37,563 nucleotides of DNA from Kofleriaceae bacterium (GCA_044230415.1 JBGARE010000001.1:561195-598757); one strand, 5' to 3'; shown: positions 1-8,928, counted from the stretch's first letter. The notes: a model not told the origin generated them from the sequence alone. Program-made: numbers and translations.

Positions 1-322
1 CGATCCCGAGTCGTCGATCACGAACAGCAGATCGACGTTGGGGCACGCACCCGCGGCTCCACCATCGACGTCCGCGCCGGGGCCGACGTCATCGCCGCCG
101 CCACCCGAATCGCCCGGACGAGGGCCGGGACCGCACGCCGCGAGACACAACATCAGACCGAGTGCCCTCATCGAGCGGCACCCAGAGCAAAGACGCGGCC
201 ACCGAACAACTACCTGGATCTTCGACGCCGCCGGCGAGAACTGCCGATCCTCCTCGACAGCAGGCGCCGACTTTCGTGAGCAGCGCTCGCGTGCATCGAG
301 TGCACGCCGGTGCACGAATCGC

Positions 323-3300
323 TCAACTCCACGGCTCGCGCGCGAGGATCGCGAGCGCTCGCCGGCGCGTGGCCGGATCGAGCCGACCATCGAACGCCGC
401 ATCGAAGGCCGCCCCGAGCTCCACGCTCGATGCGAATCGATCCTCGGGCTGCGTCGCGAGTCCGATGCGCAACGCGAGCGCGACATCGCCACCCACCAGT
501 GCGTCCGGTTCCGCCGGTTGCGGTCGCACCGCCGCGAGCGCGGTCGTCGTCGTCCACGCAGACCGCCCGGTCAACGCGCGATAGACCACCGCGCAGAAGC
601 TGAACAGATCGGACCGCGCGTCGACGGCACGTCCCGTCAGCTGCTCGGGCGCCATGAACGGCGGCGTGCCGATCACGAGATTTCCCGTCGTGTCCGAAGG
701 GGCATCCACGAACTTCGCGATGCCAAAATCGACGAGCTTCCAGCGCTCGCTCGTCCGCACGAGGTTGCTCGGCTTCACGTCGCGATGCAGCACGCCCGCG
801 CGATGCACGTCCTCGAGCCCACGCGCGATATCGCGGATCATCGCGCGCGCGGTCGGGACATCGAGTCGCTCGCGCTCGCGCAACAGACCCGCGAGCGTCA
901 CGCCATCGACGAGCTCCATCGCCAGGAACGGGACGCGCTCGTCGGAGCCAACCTCGAGCACGCGCGAGACATACGGGCTCTCCACCTGGCGCAACGCACT
1001 CGCCTCGCGAGCGAACCGCCGCAGGTTCTCGGGCGCGATCCGGTCCGCGCGGATCATCTTGAGCGCGACGGTTTGTCCATCGCGCCGCGCTTCGTAGACC
1101 TCGCCCATGCCGCCGCGACCGACGAGCTTCTCGATGACATAGCCGCCGATCGTCGAGCCCGTGAACAATCCGCCGGTCTCGCCGGCCAGCGCACGATCGA
1201 GCTCGGCGCGCGCCGTCGAGAGCAGCGCTTCTTTCTGCGCGGCGTCGCGCAGCGCGACTTCATTGCTTCGCACCAAACGATCGAAGTGGCGATCGATCAC
1301 CGCGGCGATCGCGAACGCGGCGACGTACGTGCCCATGTACAGCGCGTGCAGCGCCCACCCCACGGCGGGCGAGAGGCCGACATAGGCGATCGGAGTGTTG
1401 CCGAGATCGCGGATCGCTCCCATCGCGAACAGCGTGTAGGCGACCGTGTGGCCGACGAGGATCGCGACGAGGATCCACCACTGGCTGTCGAGCACGCTCG
1501 TCGACGATCGGGAGGTCGTCTGCGACGCACGAAACAAGCGACCCACGAACAACACGAAGGCGACGATCGCTGCGAAGCCCGAGTGGAGCCCGAGGGCGAA
1601 CGCAGGCCCGACGCTGAGCGCGCCGACGATCACCCACGGCCACGTCGCGGAGGAGAGCTGCGCGACGCCGGGCCGGGGCGAGGTCTGGGGCGATCGATGG
1701 AGGCCCACCGTGATCGCGATGCCCGCGATACCAATCCACGCGGCCCACAGCGCTTCACGCTCGCGCACGATGAAGCCGAGGAACACCGCGCCGCCGATGC
1801 ACACTCCGAGGACGCCGGCGCGTTGGCGGCGAGCTTTGTCGCGAAACGCGATCTGCCACGCTTCGTCGCGCGTGGCATCGAACACCGCGCTGTCGTGTGG
1901 ATCGTCGTGTCGTACGGCGTCACGTGCGCCGTGGGTGTCGTCGGTGCCGCGTGCGGCATCGACAGGCTCGATCGCGGGCGCGCTCGTTCTCGCTGCGGCG
2001 ACCGTGCGCGCGATGGCCTTCGATGACGTCCGCGCGCGGACGACGTCCGTGGGCTCGATCTCGACCGAAGGTGCAACGACCGTCCACGCAGGCAACCCGG
2101 CGGCGCGGTCACGCAGCGGGTCACCGAGCGTCCCGTCGACGGCGGCGAGGAATGCGGCGCGGAACGATTCGGCGTCGGAGAATCTGCTCGCTGGCGCGGA
2201 CGCGAGACCGATCTGCAAGACGCGAGCGACGTCGTCTGCGACCTCGCCCTGCAGGCGCGGATCGATCGGCATGCGCGTGGCGACCGCGTGCGCGAGCTGG
2301 CTCGACGATGACTCCGCGAACGGATCGTTGCCGGTCGCGGCGGCGTAGAGACACGCGGCGAGACTGTAGAGATCGGATGCGGGCGTGGGCGTTGCGGTCG
2401 GATCCGCGATCAACTCGGGCGCCGTGAAGTGCGGTGTGCCCGCGCCGGCGCGCGAGCCGAAATCGATCAACTTCCAGCCCGTGGTCGTCTTGATCAGGTT
2501 CTGCGGCGCGACGTCGCCGTGGACCAAGCCCGCGGCGTGGACCGCCATCAGCGCGGCGCACGATGCGGAGGCGAGCTCGGCGAGGGCGGCGCGATCGAGC
2601 GCACCGCGCTCCGCGAGCACGGCGCGCAGGTCGGTGCCGTCGAGCTTCTCCATCGCGAGGAACGGGATCTCCGCGTCGAGCCCACCGGCTTCGCGCGCGC
2701 GTACGACGTACGGGCTCTCGATGCGCATCGCGGTGTTCGCTTCTTCGATGAAGCTGCGCACCGCCGCGGGATCGCGGAGTCGATCGCCGCGCACGAGCTT
2801 CACCGCGAGGATCGTGCCGTCCTCCGCGCGCGCGTCGTAGACCTCGCCGGCGCCGCCGCGACCGACGAGGTCGCCGAGCCGAAAAGATCCGATCCGCTGG
2901 CCGGAGAACACTCCCTGGCGGCCGATCGCGAGCGTCCGCACGTACTCGGCGCGTGCTTCGTCGAGCAGCGATGCACGCCGAGCGGCGACCTGGATCGCGG
3001 CATCGAGCTCGGACGACAAGCGCTGGTAGCGCGCACGGAAGGCGCGGCCGGCGAAGAACGCGGTCGCGTAGAGGAGCTGGATCGCGAGGTGCGCGCTCAC
3101 GTGGTGCCACGGCGGATGACCGGGAGGCATGAACGGCAACATCGATTCGTCGCCGAGAGCTCCCGCGATCACGAGCGCGCTGACGGCCGCTTGGCCGCCG
3201 GCGATCGCACCGAAGAACAGCCAGCCGCCGAGGCGGTCGGCGAACAGCCCTGCGAGCAGGAGCGCGAGCACGAACAGCGCCGCGAACGCGGAGCTCGTAC

Positions 3301-3583
3301 CGAACGCCCAGCCGATCGGGATCGCGAGGAGACCGAACACGACGAGCGCGACGATCTCCACGATGCGTGGTCTCTCGGCCCGCGTGCGCGCGAACGGGAC
3401 GAACGCGATGGCGATCAGAGAGAGAGCCGCGATCGCGAATGGGGCGGGTGTGCGATCGCGCGCGAACGCGACGAGGATCGCGATGGCGAGGATGCACGCG
3501 ATCGGCGGGACGGCGATCAGGCGCCCTCGGCCAACCAGCGTCGGTGCGGCGGCCACGCTACTCCGACGACTTGGATCCGCCAC
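323..3583 (-). CDS. Membrane-anchored Ser/Thr protein kinase with two tandem [multi-TM + coiled-coil + Hanks-type kinase] modules, 1086 aa; it could be two adjacent paralogous kinase genes read as one ORF
   Basis: Module 1 (aa ~1-560) has hydrophobic TM helices and a kinase domain with GRGGAGEVY, AVK, an atypical HGDVAPQN catalytic loop, DFG and APE. Module 2 (aa ~570-1086) has TM helices and a canonical kinase with GRGGMGEVY, ALK, HRDVKPSNL, DFG and APE. There is no stop codon between the modules. The ORF start overlaps the upstream gene's end by about 26 nt, so the true start may be a few codons in. Confidence 0.8.
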   Translation of the reverse strand: MADPSRRSSVAAAPTLVGRGRLIAVPPIACILAIAILVAFARDRTPAPFAIAALSLIAIAFVPFARTRAERPRIVEIVALVVFGLLAIPIGWAFGTSSAFAALFVLALLLAGLFADRLGGWLFFGAIAGGQAAVSALVIAGALGDESMLPFMPPGHPPWHHVSAHLAIQLLYATAFFAGRAFRARYQRLSSELDAAIQVAARRASLLDEARAEYVRTLAIGRQGVFSGQRIGSFRLGDLVGRGGAGEVYDARAEDGTILAVKLVRGDRLRDPAAVRSFIEEANTAMRIESPYVVRAREAGGLDAEIPFLAMEKLDGTDLRAVLAERGALDRAALAELASASCAALMAVHAAGLVHGDVAPQNLIKTTTGWKLIDFGSRAGAGTPHFTAPELIADPTATPTPASDLYSLAACLYAAATGNDPFAESSSSQLAHAVATRMPIDPRLQGEVADDVARVLQIGLASAPASRFSDAESFRAAFLAAVDGTLGDPLRDRAAGLPAWTVVAPSVEIEPTDVVRARTSSKAIARTVAAARTSAPAIEPVDAARGTDDTHGARDAVRHDDPHDSAVFDATRDEAWQIAFRDKARRQRAGVLGVCIGGAVFLGFIVREREALWAAWIGIAGIAITVGLHRSPQTSPRPGVAQLSSATWPWVIVGALSVGPAFALGLHSGFAAIVAFVLFVGRLFRASQTTSRSSTSVLDSQWWILVAILVGHTVAYTLFAMGAIRDLGNTPIAYVGLSPAVGWALHALYMGTYVAAFAIAAVIDRHFDRLVRSNEVALRDAAQKEALLSTARAELDRALAGETGGLFTGSTIGGYVIEKLVGRGGMGEVYEARRDGQTVALKMIRADRIAPENLRRFAREASALRQVESPYVSRVLEVGSDERVPFLAMELVDGVTLAGLLRERERLDVPTARAMIRDIARGLEDVHRAGVLHRDVKPSNLVRTSERWKLVDFGIAKFVDAPSDTTGNLVIGTPPFMAPEQLTGRAVDARSDLFSFCAVVYRALTGRSAWTTTTALAAVRPQPAEPDALVGGDVALALRIGLATQPEDRFASSVELGAAFDAAFDGRLDPATRRRALAILAREPWS

Positions 3584-4874
3584 GGAGGCCGGCGCGATTC
3601 ATCATCTTGTAGATCGTCATGCGATCGACATCGGCAGCGCGAGCGGCGGAGGAGATGTTGCCGTCGTGCGCGTCGATCAGCTCCGTGATGTATCGGCGCT
3701 CGAGCTCGTCGATGATCTTCCTCTTCGCCTCTTTGAACGGCAGCGAGACATCGAGCGACGTCGGACCGCTCGACCACTGGCGCTCCATCTCGGGGAACTT
3801 CGACAGCGTGATCGCTTGTTCGATCGATCCGCGGAGCTCGCGCACGTTGCCGGGCCAGGGCTGGCGCTCGGCCCACTCGACGAAGCCCGGAGGAAGCGGG
3901 CCGCCGCCGAACCGCTCGACGAGGTGCTCGATCAGCGGCGCGATGTCCTCGCGGCGGTCGCGCAGCGGCGGCAGGTGCACGCGCGCGACGGCGATACGGA
4001 AGTACAGGTCGGCGCGGAACGCGTCGCTGTTGACCTGTGCGGCAAGGTCGCGATTCGTGGCGGCGACCAGGCGAACATCGCACGAGATGGGCGTGACGCT
4101 TCCGATGCGACGGATCTGGCGTGTCTCGACGGCGCGCAGCAACTTCGGTTGGACATCGAGCGGAAGCTCGCCGATCTCGTCGAGGAAGAGCGTTCCGCCG
4201 TGCGCGGCTTCGAACACGCCGGGGCGCGCGGAGATCGCGTTCGTGAATGCTCCGGCCTCGTGGCCGAAGAGCTGATCTTCGACGAGCTGTGCGGGGATCG
4301 CGCCGCAATCGAGGATGATGAACGGTCCTGCACTTCGCGCGGAGCCGTGGTGGATCGCTTGGGCGGCGAGCTCCTTGCCCGTGCCGGTCTCGCCGGAGAT
4401 GAGGACCGTCGCATCGGTGGCGGCCAATCGCTGGAGCACCTCGAACACGCGGCGCATCGCTGGACTCTCCCCGACGAAGCCACCGAGGCGGCGCGCCCCG
4501 GAGATCGGAAGCTCGACGGACTCCGCGAGCGGCTCGAAGCGGATCGTGTTGTCGCCGATGCCGATCGTCGTGTTCGCGACGAGGAATCCCTCGATCACGC
4601 GCATGCCCGCGACGTGCGTCCCGTTCGTCGAGCCGAGGTCGCGCAGGCGATAGCCCGTGGACTCGAGCCGGATCTCGGCGTGGAGCGCCGAGGCGCGTCG
4701 ATCCGTGAGCTTGAGATCCGCGTTCGCGCGCCCGATCACGATCGAGGGCGAGCGAAAGACCTTCACGAGCCCGCGATCGGGTCCGCTGACGACTTCGAGT
4801 CGACACGCACGAACGTGCAGCGAGTCACCTTCGGCGCGGCGCTTCACCCAGGTCCCGGTCTCGAGGTCCGTCAC
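3558..4874 (-). CDS. Sigma-54-dependent transcriptional activator (bacterial enhancer-binding protein) with an N-terminal FHA domain and a C-terminal Fis-type HTH
   Basis: FHA-like N-terminus (VIGRANADLKLTD...STNGTHV). AAA+ sigma54-interaction domain with Walker A GETGTGKE, the GAFTNA (GAFTGA-type) loop, ESQLFGHE and the arginine finger region. C-terminal DNA-binding HTH (ISSAARAADVDRMTIYKMM). Confidence 0.9.
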   Translation of the reverse strand: MTDLETGTWVKRRAEGDSLHVRACRLEVVSGPDRGLVKVFRSPSIVIGRANADLKLTDRRASALHAEIRLESTGYRLRDLGSTNGTHVAGMRVIEGFLVANTTIGIGDNTIRFEPLAESVELPISGARRLGGFVGESPAMRRVFEVLQRLAATDATVLISGETGTGKELAAQAIHHGSARSAGPFIILDCGAIPAQLVEDQLFGHEAGAFTNAISARPGVFEAAHGGTLFLDEIGELPLDVQPKLLRAVETRQIRRIGSVTPISCDVRLVAATNRDLAAQVNSDAFRADLYFRIAVARVHLPPLRDRREDIAPLIEHLVERFGGGPLPPGFVEWAERQPWPGNVRELRGSIEQAITLSKFPEMERQWSSGPTSLDVSLPFKEAKRKIIDELERRYITELIDAHDGNISSAARAADVDRMTIYKMMNRAGLRGGSKSSE

Positions 4875-4904: not shown

Positions 4905-5687
4905 TCAGCGATCGTTGGAGCGATGGCGCCGCACGGGCACGAGCACCGGGCGCTTCGCGCTCTTGCCATCGCCGGTCGTTCGGCCGCGTAGCCGGCGCCA
5001 TGCCCACGGGGCGACGAAGCGCGCGATCCACGCGAGATCGGTGGCGAGCTCGTCGCGTCGACGGCGCCGCGGCATCGGCGCGGGCGGGTGCGAGAGTCCG
5101 GGCTCGACGTGCGGGATGTCGAGCATGAACGCGAGTTGCGCCGCGATGCGCGCGTGGCCCTCGGGGTTACCGTGCAGACGATCCACGGCCCACATGCGCG
5201 GATCGTGCGCGAGCTCGAACGACGCGAGATCGAGGAGCAGCGCACCCGCGCGTTCGGCTTCGTCGCGGATCGCGATGTTGAGATCGTGCGTGCGCACCGA
5301 AAGCGCGCGGCCGAGCTTCATCCGGCGGGACACGTCGGGGATCGTGAACGTGATCACCGTGGCGCCGACGCCGCGGAGCCCGCGCACCATCTCGCCGACG
5401 TGGCCGGCGACGCGCGTGGCGCTCCAGTTCGAGCGCAAGAGGTCGTTCATGCCGGCGACGACGGTCGCGAGATCGGGCCGCATCGCGATCGCGGGCGCGA
5501 GTTGTGTCGCGCTGATCTCGCCGGCGCTGCGACCACGCACCGCGAGGTTCGCGTAGGCGAGCGAGGGATTCTGGGACGCGACGTGCTCGGCGAGGCGATC
5601 GGCCCAGCCGCGATAGCCACCGTCGCCATCGGGATCATCGAGGCCTTCGGTGCTGCTGTCACCGAGGGCGACGTACCGCGAGAACAT
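4905..5687 (-). CDS. SGNH/GDSL family hydrolase (lipase/esterase-like)
   Basis: N-terminal block I motif YVALGDSSTEG, GMNDL, and C-terminal DRLHGNPEGH (block V DxxH). The Arg-rich C-terminal tail may be an over-extension. Confidence 0.7.
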   Translation of the reverse strand: MFSRYVALGDSSTEGLDDPDGDGGYRGWADRLAEHVASQNPSLAYANLAVRGRSAGEISATQLAPAIAMRPDLATVVAGMNDLLRSNWSATRVAGHVGEMVRGLRGVGATVITFTIPDVSRRMKLGRALSVRTHDLNIAIRDEAERAGALLLDLASFELAHDPRMWAVDRLHGNPEGHARIAAQLAFMLDIPHVEPGLSHPPAPMPRRRRRDELATDLAWIARFVAPWAWRRLRGRTTGDGKSAKRPVLVPVRRHRSNDR

Positions 5688-6983
5688 TCATCGACTATAG
5701 GCCGACCTCCGGCGGCGAACGAGCAGCAGGGCGGCGCAGACGAGGCCAGCGAGCGGGAATGGGGGGGACGACCCGCTCGAGCTGCAACCCGTGTCTGCGC
5801 CGCCGCTACCAGTGTTGCCGTTGGGGTCATCGGATCCGCCGTCGCCATCGCAGGTTCCGTTGCCGTCGCTATCGATGATGCATTGGCCGGACACGCAGTC
5901 CGCGCCGGACATGCAGCCCGTGCCCGGATCGCCCGGCATGTCACCGGGCATGTCGCCGGGATCGGGCGTGCCGTAGACGACATCGACGAACGCGGACGCC
6001 ATGTTGTTCGCGGCATCGAATCCCGTGACCTGCACGCGATGCGTGCCCTCGGCGAGCGTGGTGCCGGTGGTCCAGGTCCACGGCGCCGCCGTCTTCGTCC
6101 CGACGAGCGTTCCGTCGAGGCGCAGCTCTGCCTTCGCGACGGCGACGTTATCGGTGACCGTGGCGGTGACGGTGAAGCCCGGCGAGACCTGCGCGTTCGC
6201 TGCGGGCGAGCTGATCGCGACGACCGGCGCGGTCGTGTCGGGCACGTTCGCGCCGAACACCGCCATGATCAGCGCGTAGCTATTCATCTGCTGCGATCCG
6301 GTCTGCGCGTAGGTGCAGCTGCACTGGCGCGCGTTGTACTCGCCGCACGAACCGGCCGCGTTCTGGAACGCCTTCTGCGCGGGACCGGACTGGAGGTACG
6401 TCATCGGATCGCGGTTGTCGTACTTGTGATCGAGGCCCCACGAGTGCGCGGTCTCCTGCGCGACGGTCCAGCACAGATCCAAAATCGAGCTCGGCGCTTC
6501 GTTCGCGAACGTGAACGAGATCGCGTTCCCGATGTAGCCGCACGAGAACGGCGACACGCCGAGCACGCCGCTTTGCTGGCCTGCATTCGCGGCGCGCCCC
6601 GCGACGATCGCCATGTGATAGTTCGTACCGGCCGGGGGACGATCGGTGACGATCTGGACGTTGAACGGCGCGTACGTCTGCCGCACGCACGCGACGATCT
6701 GATTCCACTGCGCGGCGGTGCCCGTGTACGCGGGGATGTTCACCGCGCTGGTCACGATGCTCGAGCGATTGAGCGGCGCGTTGTTCTGACCGGGCGAGAG
6801 CTGACAGCCGCCGGCGCAGTTGTTCAGGTAGATGATGTTCGAGACCGTCGCCGCGACCGGCGGCTCCCACGTGCTGTGGACCAGCGACGGATCCGTCCAC
6901 TGGTACGTCGCGCGAGGTGCAGCGTGGGCGTTACCGATCGCTCCCGCGACCAGGAGCGCGATCCAGAGATGGCGGCGCGTCAT
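5688..6983 (-). CDS. Secreted multidomain protein: N-terminal metzincin-like domain (degenerate motif), Ig-like (Big) domain, Cys-rich repeat, and a C-terminal MYXO-CTERM-type sorting tail
   Basis: Signal peptide MTRRHLWIALLVAGAIGNAHAAP (start taken at the ATG at 6983; the ORF runs to 7037). QETAHSWGLDH resembles the HExxHxxGxxH motif with its first His replaced by Gln. The Ig-like segment reads TAPVVAISSPAANAQVSPGFTVTATVTD...RVQVTGFDAANN. The Cys-rich repeat reads CMSGADCVSGQCIIDSDGNGTC. The C-terminus GCSSSGSSPPFPLAGLVCAALLLVRRRR has the Cys, hydrophobic helix and Arg-cluster architecture of MYXO-CTERM. Confidence 0.65.
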   Translation of the reverse strand: MTRRHLWIALLVAGAIGNAHAAPRATYQWTDPSLVHSTWEPPVAATVSNIIYLNNCAGGCQLSPGQNNAPLNRSSIVTSAVNIPAYTGTAAQWNQIVACVRQTYAPFNVQIVTDRPPAGTNYHMAIVAGRAANAGQQSGVLGVSPFSCGYIGNAISFTFANEAPSSILDLCWTVAQETAHSWGLDHKYDNRDPMTYLQSGPAQKAFQNAAGSCGEYNARQCSCTYAQTGSQQMNSYALIMAVFGANVPDTTAPVVAISSPAANAQVSPGFTVTATVTDNVAVAKAELRLDGTLVGTKTAAPWTWTTGTTLAEGTHRVQVTGFDAANNMASAFVDVVYGTPDPGDMPGDMPGDPGTGCMSGADCVSGQCIIDSDGNGTCDGDGGSDDPNGNTGSGGADTGCSSSGSSPPFPLAGLVCAALLLVRRRRSAYSR

Positions 6984-7291
6984 GTCGAGCATCTTTGGTG
7001 ATCGCGATGCGACTCGAATACGGCGCGCTGCTAGCACCGCATCGCACTCGCATGCGCCCCGGCCATCGACGACGCGAGCTCGCGAGATGTGATCGAACGC
7101 GAGTGCGGTCGCGGCGCTGCTGCGGCGATGTAGGTGTTGTCAGCGGTAGCGAGCTTCACCGACCGCAGCGGCGCGCCAACCTCGCATTCCTGCGCAACCG
7201 GAGACGCAGGTCACGGACGGGCCACGATAGCTTCGGCCAGCAGTGTGAACGCCCGTTGGCAGCGCGACAGGCTCGTCTCATCCAGCTTGAT

Positions 7292-8536: not shown

Positions 8537-8928
8537 CTGCCGAAGAAGCGCGACAGCCACGAACGCCGAGGCTGACCGCGCGCGACGTCGATCACCAGCG
8601 CGAACTCGCGACGACCGAACCAGATCATCTGATCGTGGCGGCAGCGATCGAGCTCCACGCCGCCGAGAAACACGGGCTCCATCGCATCACCGCAGATGGG
8701 ACACTCGATCTGCTCCTCGACCGGCGCGCGGCGCCCGATCGTCGACAGATCGCCGATGCCACCCTCGGGTGCGAGGTGAGGCGCGACCACGAGGAGCTGC
8801 TCGATCACGTCGGCCACACCGACGAGCATGCCCTCGCACGTGAGGCATCCCCATCGCTCACCGGCGTCGAGGCGCGCGAGCCCGACGCGACAGATCGGGC
8901 AATCGATCGGTCGATCGCGATACGCCAC
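8533..8928 (-). CDS. Zinc-ribbon domain protein (hypothetical)
   Basis: CPICrvg...CLTCEG (CxxC-N15-CxxC) and a second CPICGD...C cluster. Convergent with the TetR gene, overlapping it by 4 nt. Confidence 0.5.
   Translation of the reverse strand: MAYRDRPIDCPICRVGLARLDAGERWGCLTCEGMLVGVADVIEQLLVVAPHLAPEGGIGDLSTIGRRAPVEEQIECPICGDAMEPVFLGGVELDRCRHDQMIWFGRREFALVIDVARGQPRRSWLSRFFGS

Follow-up and report, generated by a model that had tools for sequence, protein, structure and literature searches.

A Kofleriaceae reading frame predicted to encode two membrane sensor-kinase modules in one chain, the first with an atypical kinase-like domain

Introduction

Does a single bacterial polypeptide carry two complete receptor-kinase modules in series, and what might a first kinase domain with an altered catalytic loop do beside a canonical second one? 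The question is raised by an open reading frame (ORF) at 323..3583 on the minus strand of a 37,563 nt stretch of DNA from a Kofleriaceae bacterium (GCA_044230415.1 JBGARE010000001.1:561195-598757; this whole stretch is referred to as the window, and all window features described below lie on the same strand). The ORF has a GTG start, is uninterrupted and encodes 1086 amino acids (aa), which a first-pass annotation of the sequence had read as two units of polytopic membrane domain, coiled coil and Ser/Thr kinase in tandem. Bacterial Hanks kinases are mostly known as proteins with an N-terminal kinase, one transmembrane (TM) helix and an extracellular domain; little is understood of how Hanks kinases receive membrane-embedded signals, or of the role that bacterial pseudokinases play.

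The joint explanation that we judge best, and towards which we lean slightly, is that the ORF product is a genuine single-chain receptor Ser/Thr kinase with 12 TM helices, from a Kofleriaceae-like member of the Myxococcota, in which the first kinase domain (K1) would control the second (K2) and the output would pass to a sigma54-dependent circuit encoded alongside.

Two modules in one uninterrupted reading frame

Pfam recognised two Pkinase stretches in the ORF protein, and BLASTP of its N-terminal against its C-terminal half gave 36% identity over 442 aa (E 2e-58). Because this alignment runs through the membrane region, the helix and the kinase, the duplication is real and concerns the whole module, as first annotated. 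Module 1 consists of a six-helix membrane domain (3038..3526, aa 20-182, N-in/C-in), a cytoplasmic helix that extends TM6 together with a linker to the kinase (2888..3037, aa 183-232, a putative signalling helix or coiled coil) and the PknB-like kinase-like domain K1 with its short activation loop (2114..2887, aa 233-490). An inter-module linker (1865..2113, aa 491-573), which is predicted to be disordered, leads in frame to module 2, comprising a second six-helix membrane domain (1286..1864, aa 574-766), a cytoplasmic helix extending its TM6 (1142..1285, aa 767-814) and the canonical Hanks Ser/Thr kinase K2 (368..1141, aa 815-1072). P0001, an identical protein from a public gene call, is 1077 aa long, which implies a start at a second in-frame GTG at 3556, one base past the TAG (3560-3558) of the upstream gene. 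Because that GTG directly follows the TAG, either start (3583 or 3556) couples the kinase tightly to the upstream gene.

A homologue search covering 5.8 billion proteins returned, besides P0001, 16 more full-length two-module proteins (P0002-P0017; 1043-1217 aa, 38-91% identity to the window protein) from ENA, NCBI, JGI and Logan assemblies. All 16 are colinear with the window protein as single ORFs with no break between the modules; the linker (aa ~491-573) varies greatly among them in length and sequence, yet it is always in frame. The G+C content of third codon positions (GC3) is 0.75-0.95 along the whole ORF and 0.75-0.83 within the linker, and the window sequence of the linker is free of stops and frame changes and has no start codon preceded by a Shine-Dalgarno-like sequence. 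The first-pass annotation had allowed that the fusion might be an assembly or sequencing artefact, or two adjacent paralogues with a hidden second start, and had proposed a check for a frameshift or stop between the modules and for an internal ribosome-binding site or start for module 2. Nothing beyond that a priori possibility speaks for such an account, and it is ruled out, to the point of being highly improbable, by the continuity of the ORF in the window and in independent assemblies from the four sources, by the 16 colinear homologues down to 38% identity and many further family members, by a linker that stays in frame despite its variation in length, by the sustained GC3 and by the lack of a start codon with a Shine-Dalgarno-like sequence. 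Internal initiation could conceivably yield an additional product besides the full-length chain.

In phylogenetic trees the sequences of module 1 and those of module 2 fall into separate clades whose branching orders agree, and a neighbour-joining (NJ) tree of the kinases groups the family K1s together and the K2 and single kinases together. Single-module proteins (P0018-P0024, ~610 aa, with a homologous membrane domain, helix and kinase) cluster with module 2. Since the two clades are congruent, they are accounted for most simply by a single ancient duplication of a one-module gene, and the tandem would thereby have arisen from a unit of 6-TM sensor, helix and PknB-like kinase that persists as the single-module proteins.

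The two kinase domains

Module 2 ends in a kinase that is fully canonical, as had been claimed. Its motifs are GRGGMGEVY (822-830), VALK842, E860, HRDVKPSN (933-940), DFG (952-954), TTG (965-967) and APE (978-980), and the Hanks residues (G-loop, beta3 Lys, alphaC Glu, HRDxKxxN, DFG and APE) are invariant in 17/17 sequences of a set made up of the window protein and the 16 homologues at 38-91% identity. Its activation loop has 23 residues between DFG and APE and includes the TTG acceptors. The Pfam Pkinase score of the whole protein is 230.4 bits against a cutoff of 31.7, with the best stretch at 815-1012, and the best match of K2 among solved structures is Mycobacterium tuberculosis PknB (E 4e-37).

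K1 has GRGGAGEVY (241-249), LAVK262, HGDVAPQN (355-362), DFG (374-376) and APE (388-390), so that the G-loop, DFG and APE are present as first described, and the lysine motif is LAVK rather than the VAVK given there. The reported atypical catalytic loop (2498..2521, aa 355-362) was confirmed: Gly stands for the HRD Arg and Ala for the catalytic-loop Lys of HRDxKxxN, and the form H-G-D-V-[A/S/Q/T]-P-x-N is found in 16/17 sequences of the clade. The K1 of P0016, the most distant tandem member, retains HRDVKPAN, which indicates that the atypical loop is derived. K1 nevertheless keeps the G-loop (GRGGxGE), K262, E282, D357, N362, D374 and APE, with the alphaC Glu substituted in two orthologues. 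Its activation loop counts 11 residues between DFG and APE (10-21 across the clade), 12 fewer than in K2, and lacks the TTG. Among solved structures its best match is again M. tuberculosis PknB (E 7e-28). Residues 308-376 give weak local matches to Bud32, RIO and ThiK models; kinship with Bud32, RIO or APH was rejected, as full-length K1 is PknB-like and the Bud32/RIO/ThiK likeness is local and reflects the HGD loop only. In P0007 the stretch of K1 from the catalytic loop to the WKLIDFG strand is interrupted by ~70 inserted residues of GIAERG-like repeats (columns ~411-480 of our alignment A1), indicating that K1 tolerates a large insertion beside the active site.

The earlier proposal of a pseudokinase or a regulatory kinase-like domain is supported, by comparison, in its second half. 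The standard definition, as applied in bioRxiv 10.1101/2025.01.12.632604, requires of a pseudokinase that at least one of three residues be missing (beta3 Lys, HRD Asp, DFG Asp). By this definition K1 is not one, since K262, D357 and D374 are all present and are invariant in the window clade. Comparison with the gene of P0002, at 91% identity, gave a ratio of nonsynonymous to synonymous substitution rates (dN/dS) of 0.118 for K1, 0.106 for K2, 0.17-0.19 for the membrane domains and 0.47 for the linker; judged by these values K1 is not decaying in the window clade and is under purifying selection about as strong as that on K2. We read K1 as an atypical kinase-like domain that probably binds nucleotide. 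It has the marks of a non-RD kinase (HGD, the 11-residue DFG-APE spacing and no TTG acceptor), and we infer that it would be independent of activation-loop phosphorylation.

The wider family and the degeneration of K1

The family is small: when 1.84 billion cluster representatives were searched exhaustively by phmmer with the module-2 sensor as query, only 58 proteins matched, of which 48 had E <= 1e-10. Local hidden Markov models for sensor and kinase sorted it into four architectures, with the reservation that some of the 58 representatives are incomplete and a few class assignments, especially single-module ones, may be fragments: TM-K1-TM-K2 with a full K1 (class A), TM-[K1 remnant]-TM-K2 (class B), TM-TM-K2 with no K1 (class C) and a single TM-K (class D). 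The class B remnants, which do meet the standard definition of a pseudokinase, are mostly the C-lobe alone, with HLEV, HFGV or HATV as the loop and the DFG gone. Across the family the catalytic-loop Lys is absent from 36/37 K1s, and APE is present even in remnants. Among the K2 and single kinases, Lys, Glu, Asp, the catalytic-loop Lys, Asn and DFG are kept in nearly all of 67 copies, and the first membrane domain is never lost. This pattern argues for K2 as the source of the catalytic output and for the doubled sensor as the conserved core, with K1 in a non-catalytic or weakly catalytic part that some lineages have done without. Full-length members were placed by genome scans in metagenome-assembled genomes (MAGs) of Myxococcota only (Kofleriaceae, Sandaracinaceae and 'Myxococcales'). 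The natural series of single module, tandem with atypical K1, tandem with K1 remnant and TM-TM-K makes the role of a degenerating kinase testable by comparison and domain swaps.

Membrane domains and exit helices

Each module has six predicted TM helices, 12 in all, with basic residues on the inner loops and both ends inside, in agreement with the polytopic domain per module that had been annotated; the N-in/C-in topology of each module places both kinases in the cytoplasm. The outside loops of both membrane domains are just 3-18 residues long. Residues invariant among orthologues are G95, G112, Q131, A132, D145, W159 and H165 in the module 1 domain and G659, P660, G665, S668, D726 and P731 in that of module 2.

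A full-length AlphaFold2 (AF2) model built from the alignment (predicted local distance difference test, pLDDT, 73.5; predicted template-modelling score, pTM, 0.45) shows confident kinases and a disordered linker at 506-573, and TM6 of each module continues in it as a long cytoplasmic helix (H158-221 and H739-799), so that each predicted exit helix extends TM6 without a break by ~40-60 residues. A separate model of the module-2 sensor and helix, made from an alignment of 26 sensor sequences from both modules and single-module relatives, was better (pLDDT 83.6, pTM 0.76). Heptad analysis of both exit helices gave a/d hydrophobicity that is moderate only, and the 'coiled coil' of the first-pass annotation therefore stays a prediction, although a long helix after TM6 is indeed predicted in each module.

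The sensors resembled nothing in the collections searched. The 6-TM regions and the linker gave only sub-threshold noise against Pfam at E up to 10 (best E 0.011-0.05, below the cutoffs), a profile search with the sensor alignment found no significant match among PDB sequences, and the sensor model had no significant Foldseek match in the PDB. The 6-TM input domain thus appears to be undescribed, and it is paired with Hanks kinases in every full-length member examined.

The adjacent activator, palindrome and promoter element

Immediately upstream of the kinase, with its stop 1 nt from or overlapping the kinase start, lies a gene for an enhancer-binding protein of 438 aa (3558..4874) with FHA, sigma54-interaction AAA+ and HTH_8 domains (Pfam E 1e-10 for FHA, 5e-65 for Sigma54_activat and 8e-6 for HTH_8) and Walker motifs GETGTGKE (A) and FLDEIGE (B). 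The activator adjoins the kinase in the window and at the loci of P0002 (L090), P0005 (L001), P0012 (L006), P0013 (L003) and the class-B protein P0129 (L092); the two genes are separated by 1-16 nt or overlap by 4 nt, and they are apparently co-transcribed. At 66-95% identity the activator is more conserved than the kinase; the phosphothreonine-binding residues of its FHA domain are intact and its HTH is almost invariant.

Downstream, between the kinase stop and the next gene, are a palindrome, CTGTCGAGGAGGATCGGCAG (241..260, 63 nt past the kinase stop), which is a candidate site for the enhancer-binding protein, and a sigma54-type -24/-12 element, TGGCCGCGTCTTTGCT (186..201, 15 nt before the ATG of the next gene). 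The palindrome consensus is CTGTCGA-N6-TCGRCAG, located ~40 nt upstream of the GG-N10-GC element, and its chance expectation is 0.1 per window. It occurs in the same place at L090 (9348-9367), L001 (11428-11447), L002 (4210-4229) and L006 (8376-8395), and with one mismatch at L003. Across five aligned loci, with kinases down to ~47% identical, conservation in the spacer is confined to two blocks, namely this palindrome and the -24/-12 element, which are conserved in 5-6 loci in all. They are likely the binding site and the promoter served by the adjacent FHA-sigma54 activator, as their position and conservation suggest, and the downstream gene is the presumed target of that promoter. Only the 5' part of this gene (1..171) is present, as it is cut by the window end; it encodes a lipoprotein-type signal (MRALGLMLCLAAC) and a vWA-like, DxSxS-like motif (DLLFVIDDSGS). 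Transcription from the -24/-12 element, if it takes place, would leave the mRNA with a leader of only a few nt.

Proposed mechanism and its alternatives

We propose that the two modules pair within one chain (the first membrane domain with the second, helix with helix and K1 with K2), replacing the homodimer that the single-module relatives would form. Because the outside loops are so short, a membrane-borne or lipid-like signal would be sensed inside the bilayer, and it would shift the TM6-exit helices. K1 would serve as a nucleotide-binding, weakly active or inactive fixed partner that controls the catalytic K2, and K2 would autophosphorylate on T965/T966. FHA domains prefer pTxx[L/I], which pT966-G-N-L of K2 would fit, and the kinase may in this way recruit, or else phosphorylate, the co-transcribed FHA-sigma54 activator, which would then bind the conserved palindrome and fire the -24/-12 promoter of the adjacent downstream gene.

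Within this scheme a regulatory rather than catalytic role is favoured for K1, since it loses the catalytic-loop Lys in 36/37 copies and decays or vanishes elsewhere while K2 stays canonical. K1 could instead be a non-RD kinase that is catalytically competent because the absence of the loop Lys is compensated for, with the two kinases acting sequentially or on different substrates in a relay, like the two domains of RSK. The full set of retained K1 residues (G-loop, K262, E282, D357, N362, D374 and APE) and the strong purifying selection would suit such an enzyme, and HGDxxxxN loops do occur in active Bud32-, RIO- and APH-type enzymes, whose models are the ones that K1 residues 308-376 weakly match. 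Against this, the Lys gives way in the family K1s to a variable residue (A, S, Q, T, N, H or R), and the loop has no conserved basic residue that could compensate for it; only 11 residues remain of the activation loop, without an acceptor Thr; K1 is PknB-like over its whole length and not Bud32- or RIO-like; and sister lineages have kept the rest of the protein while their K1 has lost its N-lobe, Asp and DFG, or has disappeared altogether. We therefore regard two active kinases as an unlikely account, if one to be taken seriously. A K1 that binds no nucleotide and is retained only as an inert spacer or docking surface seems to us less likely still. The survival of only the C-lobe, including APE, in relatives does suggest the C-lobe surface as the part that matters, but GRGGxGE, K262, D357, N362 and D374 are invariant in the window clade across 38-91% identity, at a dN/dS of 0.12, a degree of conservation hard to account for without nucleotide or Mg binding.

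Several points weigh against the explanation that we prefer, namely an intramolecular pair of modules in which K1 regulates K2 and the signal passes to the sigma54 activator. K1 retains its Lys, Asp and Asp and may well be an active kinase, as the active HGDxxxxN enzymes just mentioned also illustrate. The pTM of the full-length model is 0.45, and the pairing of the modules within the chain is what we infer. All members of the family come from metagenome assemblies, and the family is known from genes alone. No activator neighbour was found at the basal tandem proteins P0016 and P0017 or at the class-C protein P0130, nor at the single-module proteins. The GAFTGA loop of the activator, which contacts sigma54 (residues 208-213), is intact in L003 and L006 and has the form GAFTNA in the window, L090 and L001. 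A scan of the whole window with the sigma54 consensus found 8 matches against 9.3 expected; as this count is not above chance, the case for the element at 186-201 rests on its position and conservation.

Relation to known systems

The closest relatives by kinase fold are the PknB-type receptor kinases (M. tuberculosis PknB, PknA and PknE and Streptococcus pneumoniae StkP), which both K1 and K2 resemble and among which PknB is the best structural match. In these an N-terminal kinase is joined by one TM helix to PASTA or other domains outside the cell, whereas in the window protein a 6-TM domain precedes each kinase and the unit is doubled. An atlas of bacterial Ser/Thr kinases (bioRxiv 10.1101/2025.01.12.632604) places a TM region N-terminal to the kinase in only 1/42 families and is silent on tandem kinases. 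In the literature searched, no account was found of tandem Hanks kinases in bacteria whose membrane sensors are doubled as well; older myxobacterial work (Perez et al. 2008, Jelsbak et al. 2005) could contain an earlier mention.

By plan, the protein resembles the membrane adenylyl cyclases, which are pseudo-heterodimers of the form [6TM, helical domain, catalytic] x 2, derived from a duplicated and fused homodimerising bacterial progenitor (PMC9552081, PMC9433096), and whose hexahelical domains have been proposed as receptors (PMC4821796, PMC11606603). The window family shares with mammalian AC9 and AC5, whose bacterial relative Rv1625c/Cya is a single-module protein, the doubled plan of 6-TM domain, helix and catalytic-type domain in one chain. 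It differs in that its catalytic domains are Pkinase, with no Guanylate_cyc match in Pfam, and in that the membrane domains have no detectable sequence similarity. We take the window protein as an analogue of these cyclases and not a member of their group, the architectural likeness being possibly one of convergence. Should the parallel be real, one signalling architecture would have evolved around unrelated catalytic domains. A stronger form of this idea, which we put forward tentatively and consider more likely to fail than to hold, is that a bacterial receptor Ser/Thr kinase reached the design of the eukaryotic membrane adenylyl cyclases, with two hexahelical ligand- or lipid-sensing domains and two catalytic folds folding back on each other in one chain, that the degenerate K1 became an obligatory allosteric partner, that the whole circuit of sensor, activator, site and promoter sits in one conserved cassette and that the family displays stages from kinase through pseudokinase to loss. 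The six-TM diguanylate cyclase ImcA of Pseudomonas aeruginosa (PDB 8wcn) has a GGDEF output, is a single-module homodimer and has no sequence similarity to the window protein.

Eukaryotic pseudokinase-kinase tandems (JH2-JH1 of JAK; plant tandem kinases such as WTK1/Yr15) have an impaired kinase fold, presumed to be regulatory, N-terminal to a canonical kinase (PMC6170490). They share with the window protein the order of impaired then canonical kinase in one chain. The window tandem is, however, independent in origin, its K1 and K2 are PknB-like paralogues, K1 keeps the Lys, Asp and Asp, and there is a membrane sensor per kinase, whereas the eukaryotic proteins are soluble or peripherally attached.

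The first-pass annotation had called the arrangement an unusual bacterial signalling architecture. This stood for the doubled 6-TM sensor, which is restricted to the window family, but a tandem of Lys-less kinase and kinase is not unique: 13/96 unrelated top kinase matches carry two kinase domains, so tandems are not rare in Myxococcota. Polyangiaceae MAG proteins of 740-950 aa (P0028-P0033, P0036 and P0038), P0075 and P0077 (Sorangium sp. So ce233) have two Hanks domains, of which the first has the catalytic-loop Lys replaced (HRDLSPQN, in a Polyangiaceae group) or a more degenerate loop (HGELQAHH, HGDLQPSH) and the second is canonical. Unlike the window family, these proteins lack the 6-TM domain, and their C-terminal domains are of other kinds (TPR, NTPase, WD40). 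Because they fall outside the 6-TM family clade in the NJ tree, their origin is probably independent. Replacement of the catalytic-loop Lys in the first domain of myxobacterial tandems appears to be recurrent and convergent.

The partner of the kinase also has precedents. FHA-domain sigma54 enhancer-binding proteins of Myxococcus xanthus were reportedly described by Jelsbak, Givskov and Kaiser in 2005, and an FHA domain on an NtrC-type activator is said to imply input from a Ser/Thr kinase. In M. tuberculosis, MviN is a polytopic membrane protein whose cytoplasmic pseudokinase domain recruits an FHA protein (FhaA). The present locus differs from both in that the kinase adjoins the FHA activator and a candidate site and promoter lie directly downstream. 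The kinase fold and the FHA-sigma54 partner are ordinary; they are combined with a doubled 6-TM sensor that appears to be undescribed and with an informative series of K1 degeneration. In the locus a complete and compact candidate pathway can be traced, from the sensor in the membrane by way of the FHA-sigma54 activator to a promoter that can be identified, and the link from Ser/Thr kinases to sigma54, long inferred for myxobacteria, could be reconstituted from four defined parts.

Other features of the locus

Right after the kinase stop, at 291-315 on the minus strand, closely spaced copies of a palindromic hexamer are found (GTGCAC-N4-GTGCAC-N4-ATGCAC), the first two of which are present in L090 and L001 and absent from L003 and L006; this array could be the site of a second regulator or belong to a terminator. 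A second near-match to the conserved palindrome, CTGTCGCGCTTCTTCGGCAG (8537-8556, minus strand, one mismatch), was dropped, having no sigma54-type element nearby, and is probably due to chance. At L092, in the same intergenic position (~3490-3560), a different palindrome (GTGTCGC-N11-GCGACAC) is followed by CTGCACGCTCCTTGCA, which resembles a -24/-12 element with TG for GG; the HTH of the activator differs there too, which may indicate co-variation of regulator and site.

The downstream position is occupied in L003 and L006 by an Amidase_2 + CarboxypepD_reg gene, and in L001 and L092 such a gene is found one further on. Upstream of the activator in the window are genes for a GDSL/SGNH hydrolase and a secreted protein with a Big_7 domain (4905-5687 and 5688-7037, minus strand). 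This gene order recurs in L090; in L001 no GDSL gene intervenes, and the Big_7 gene stands directly before the activator.

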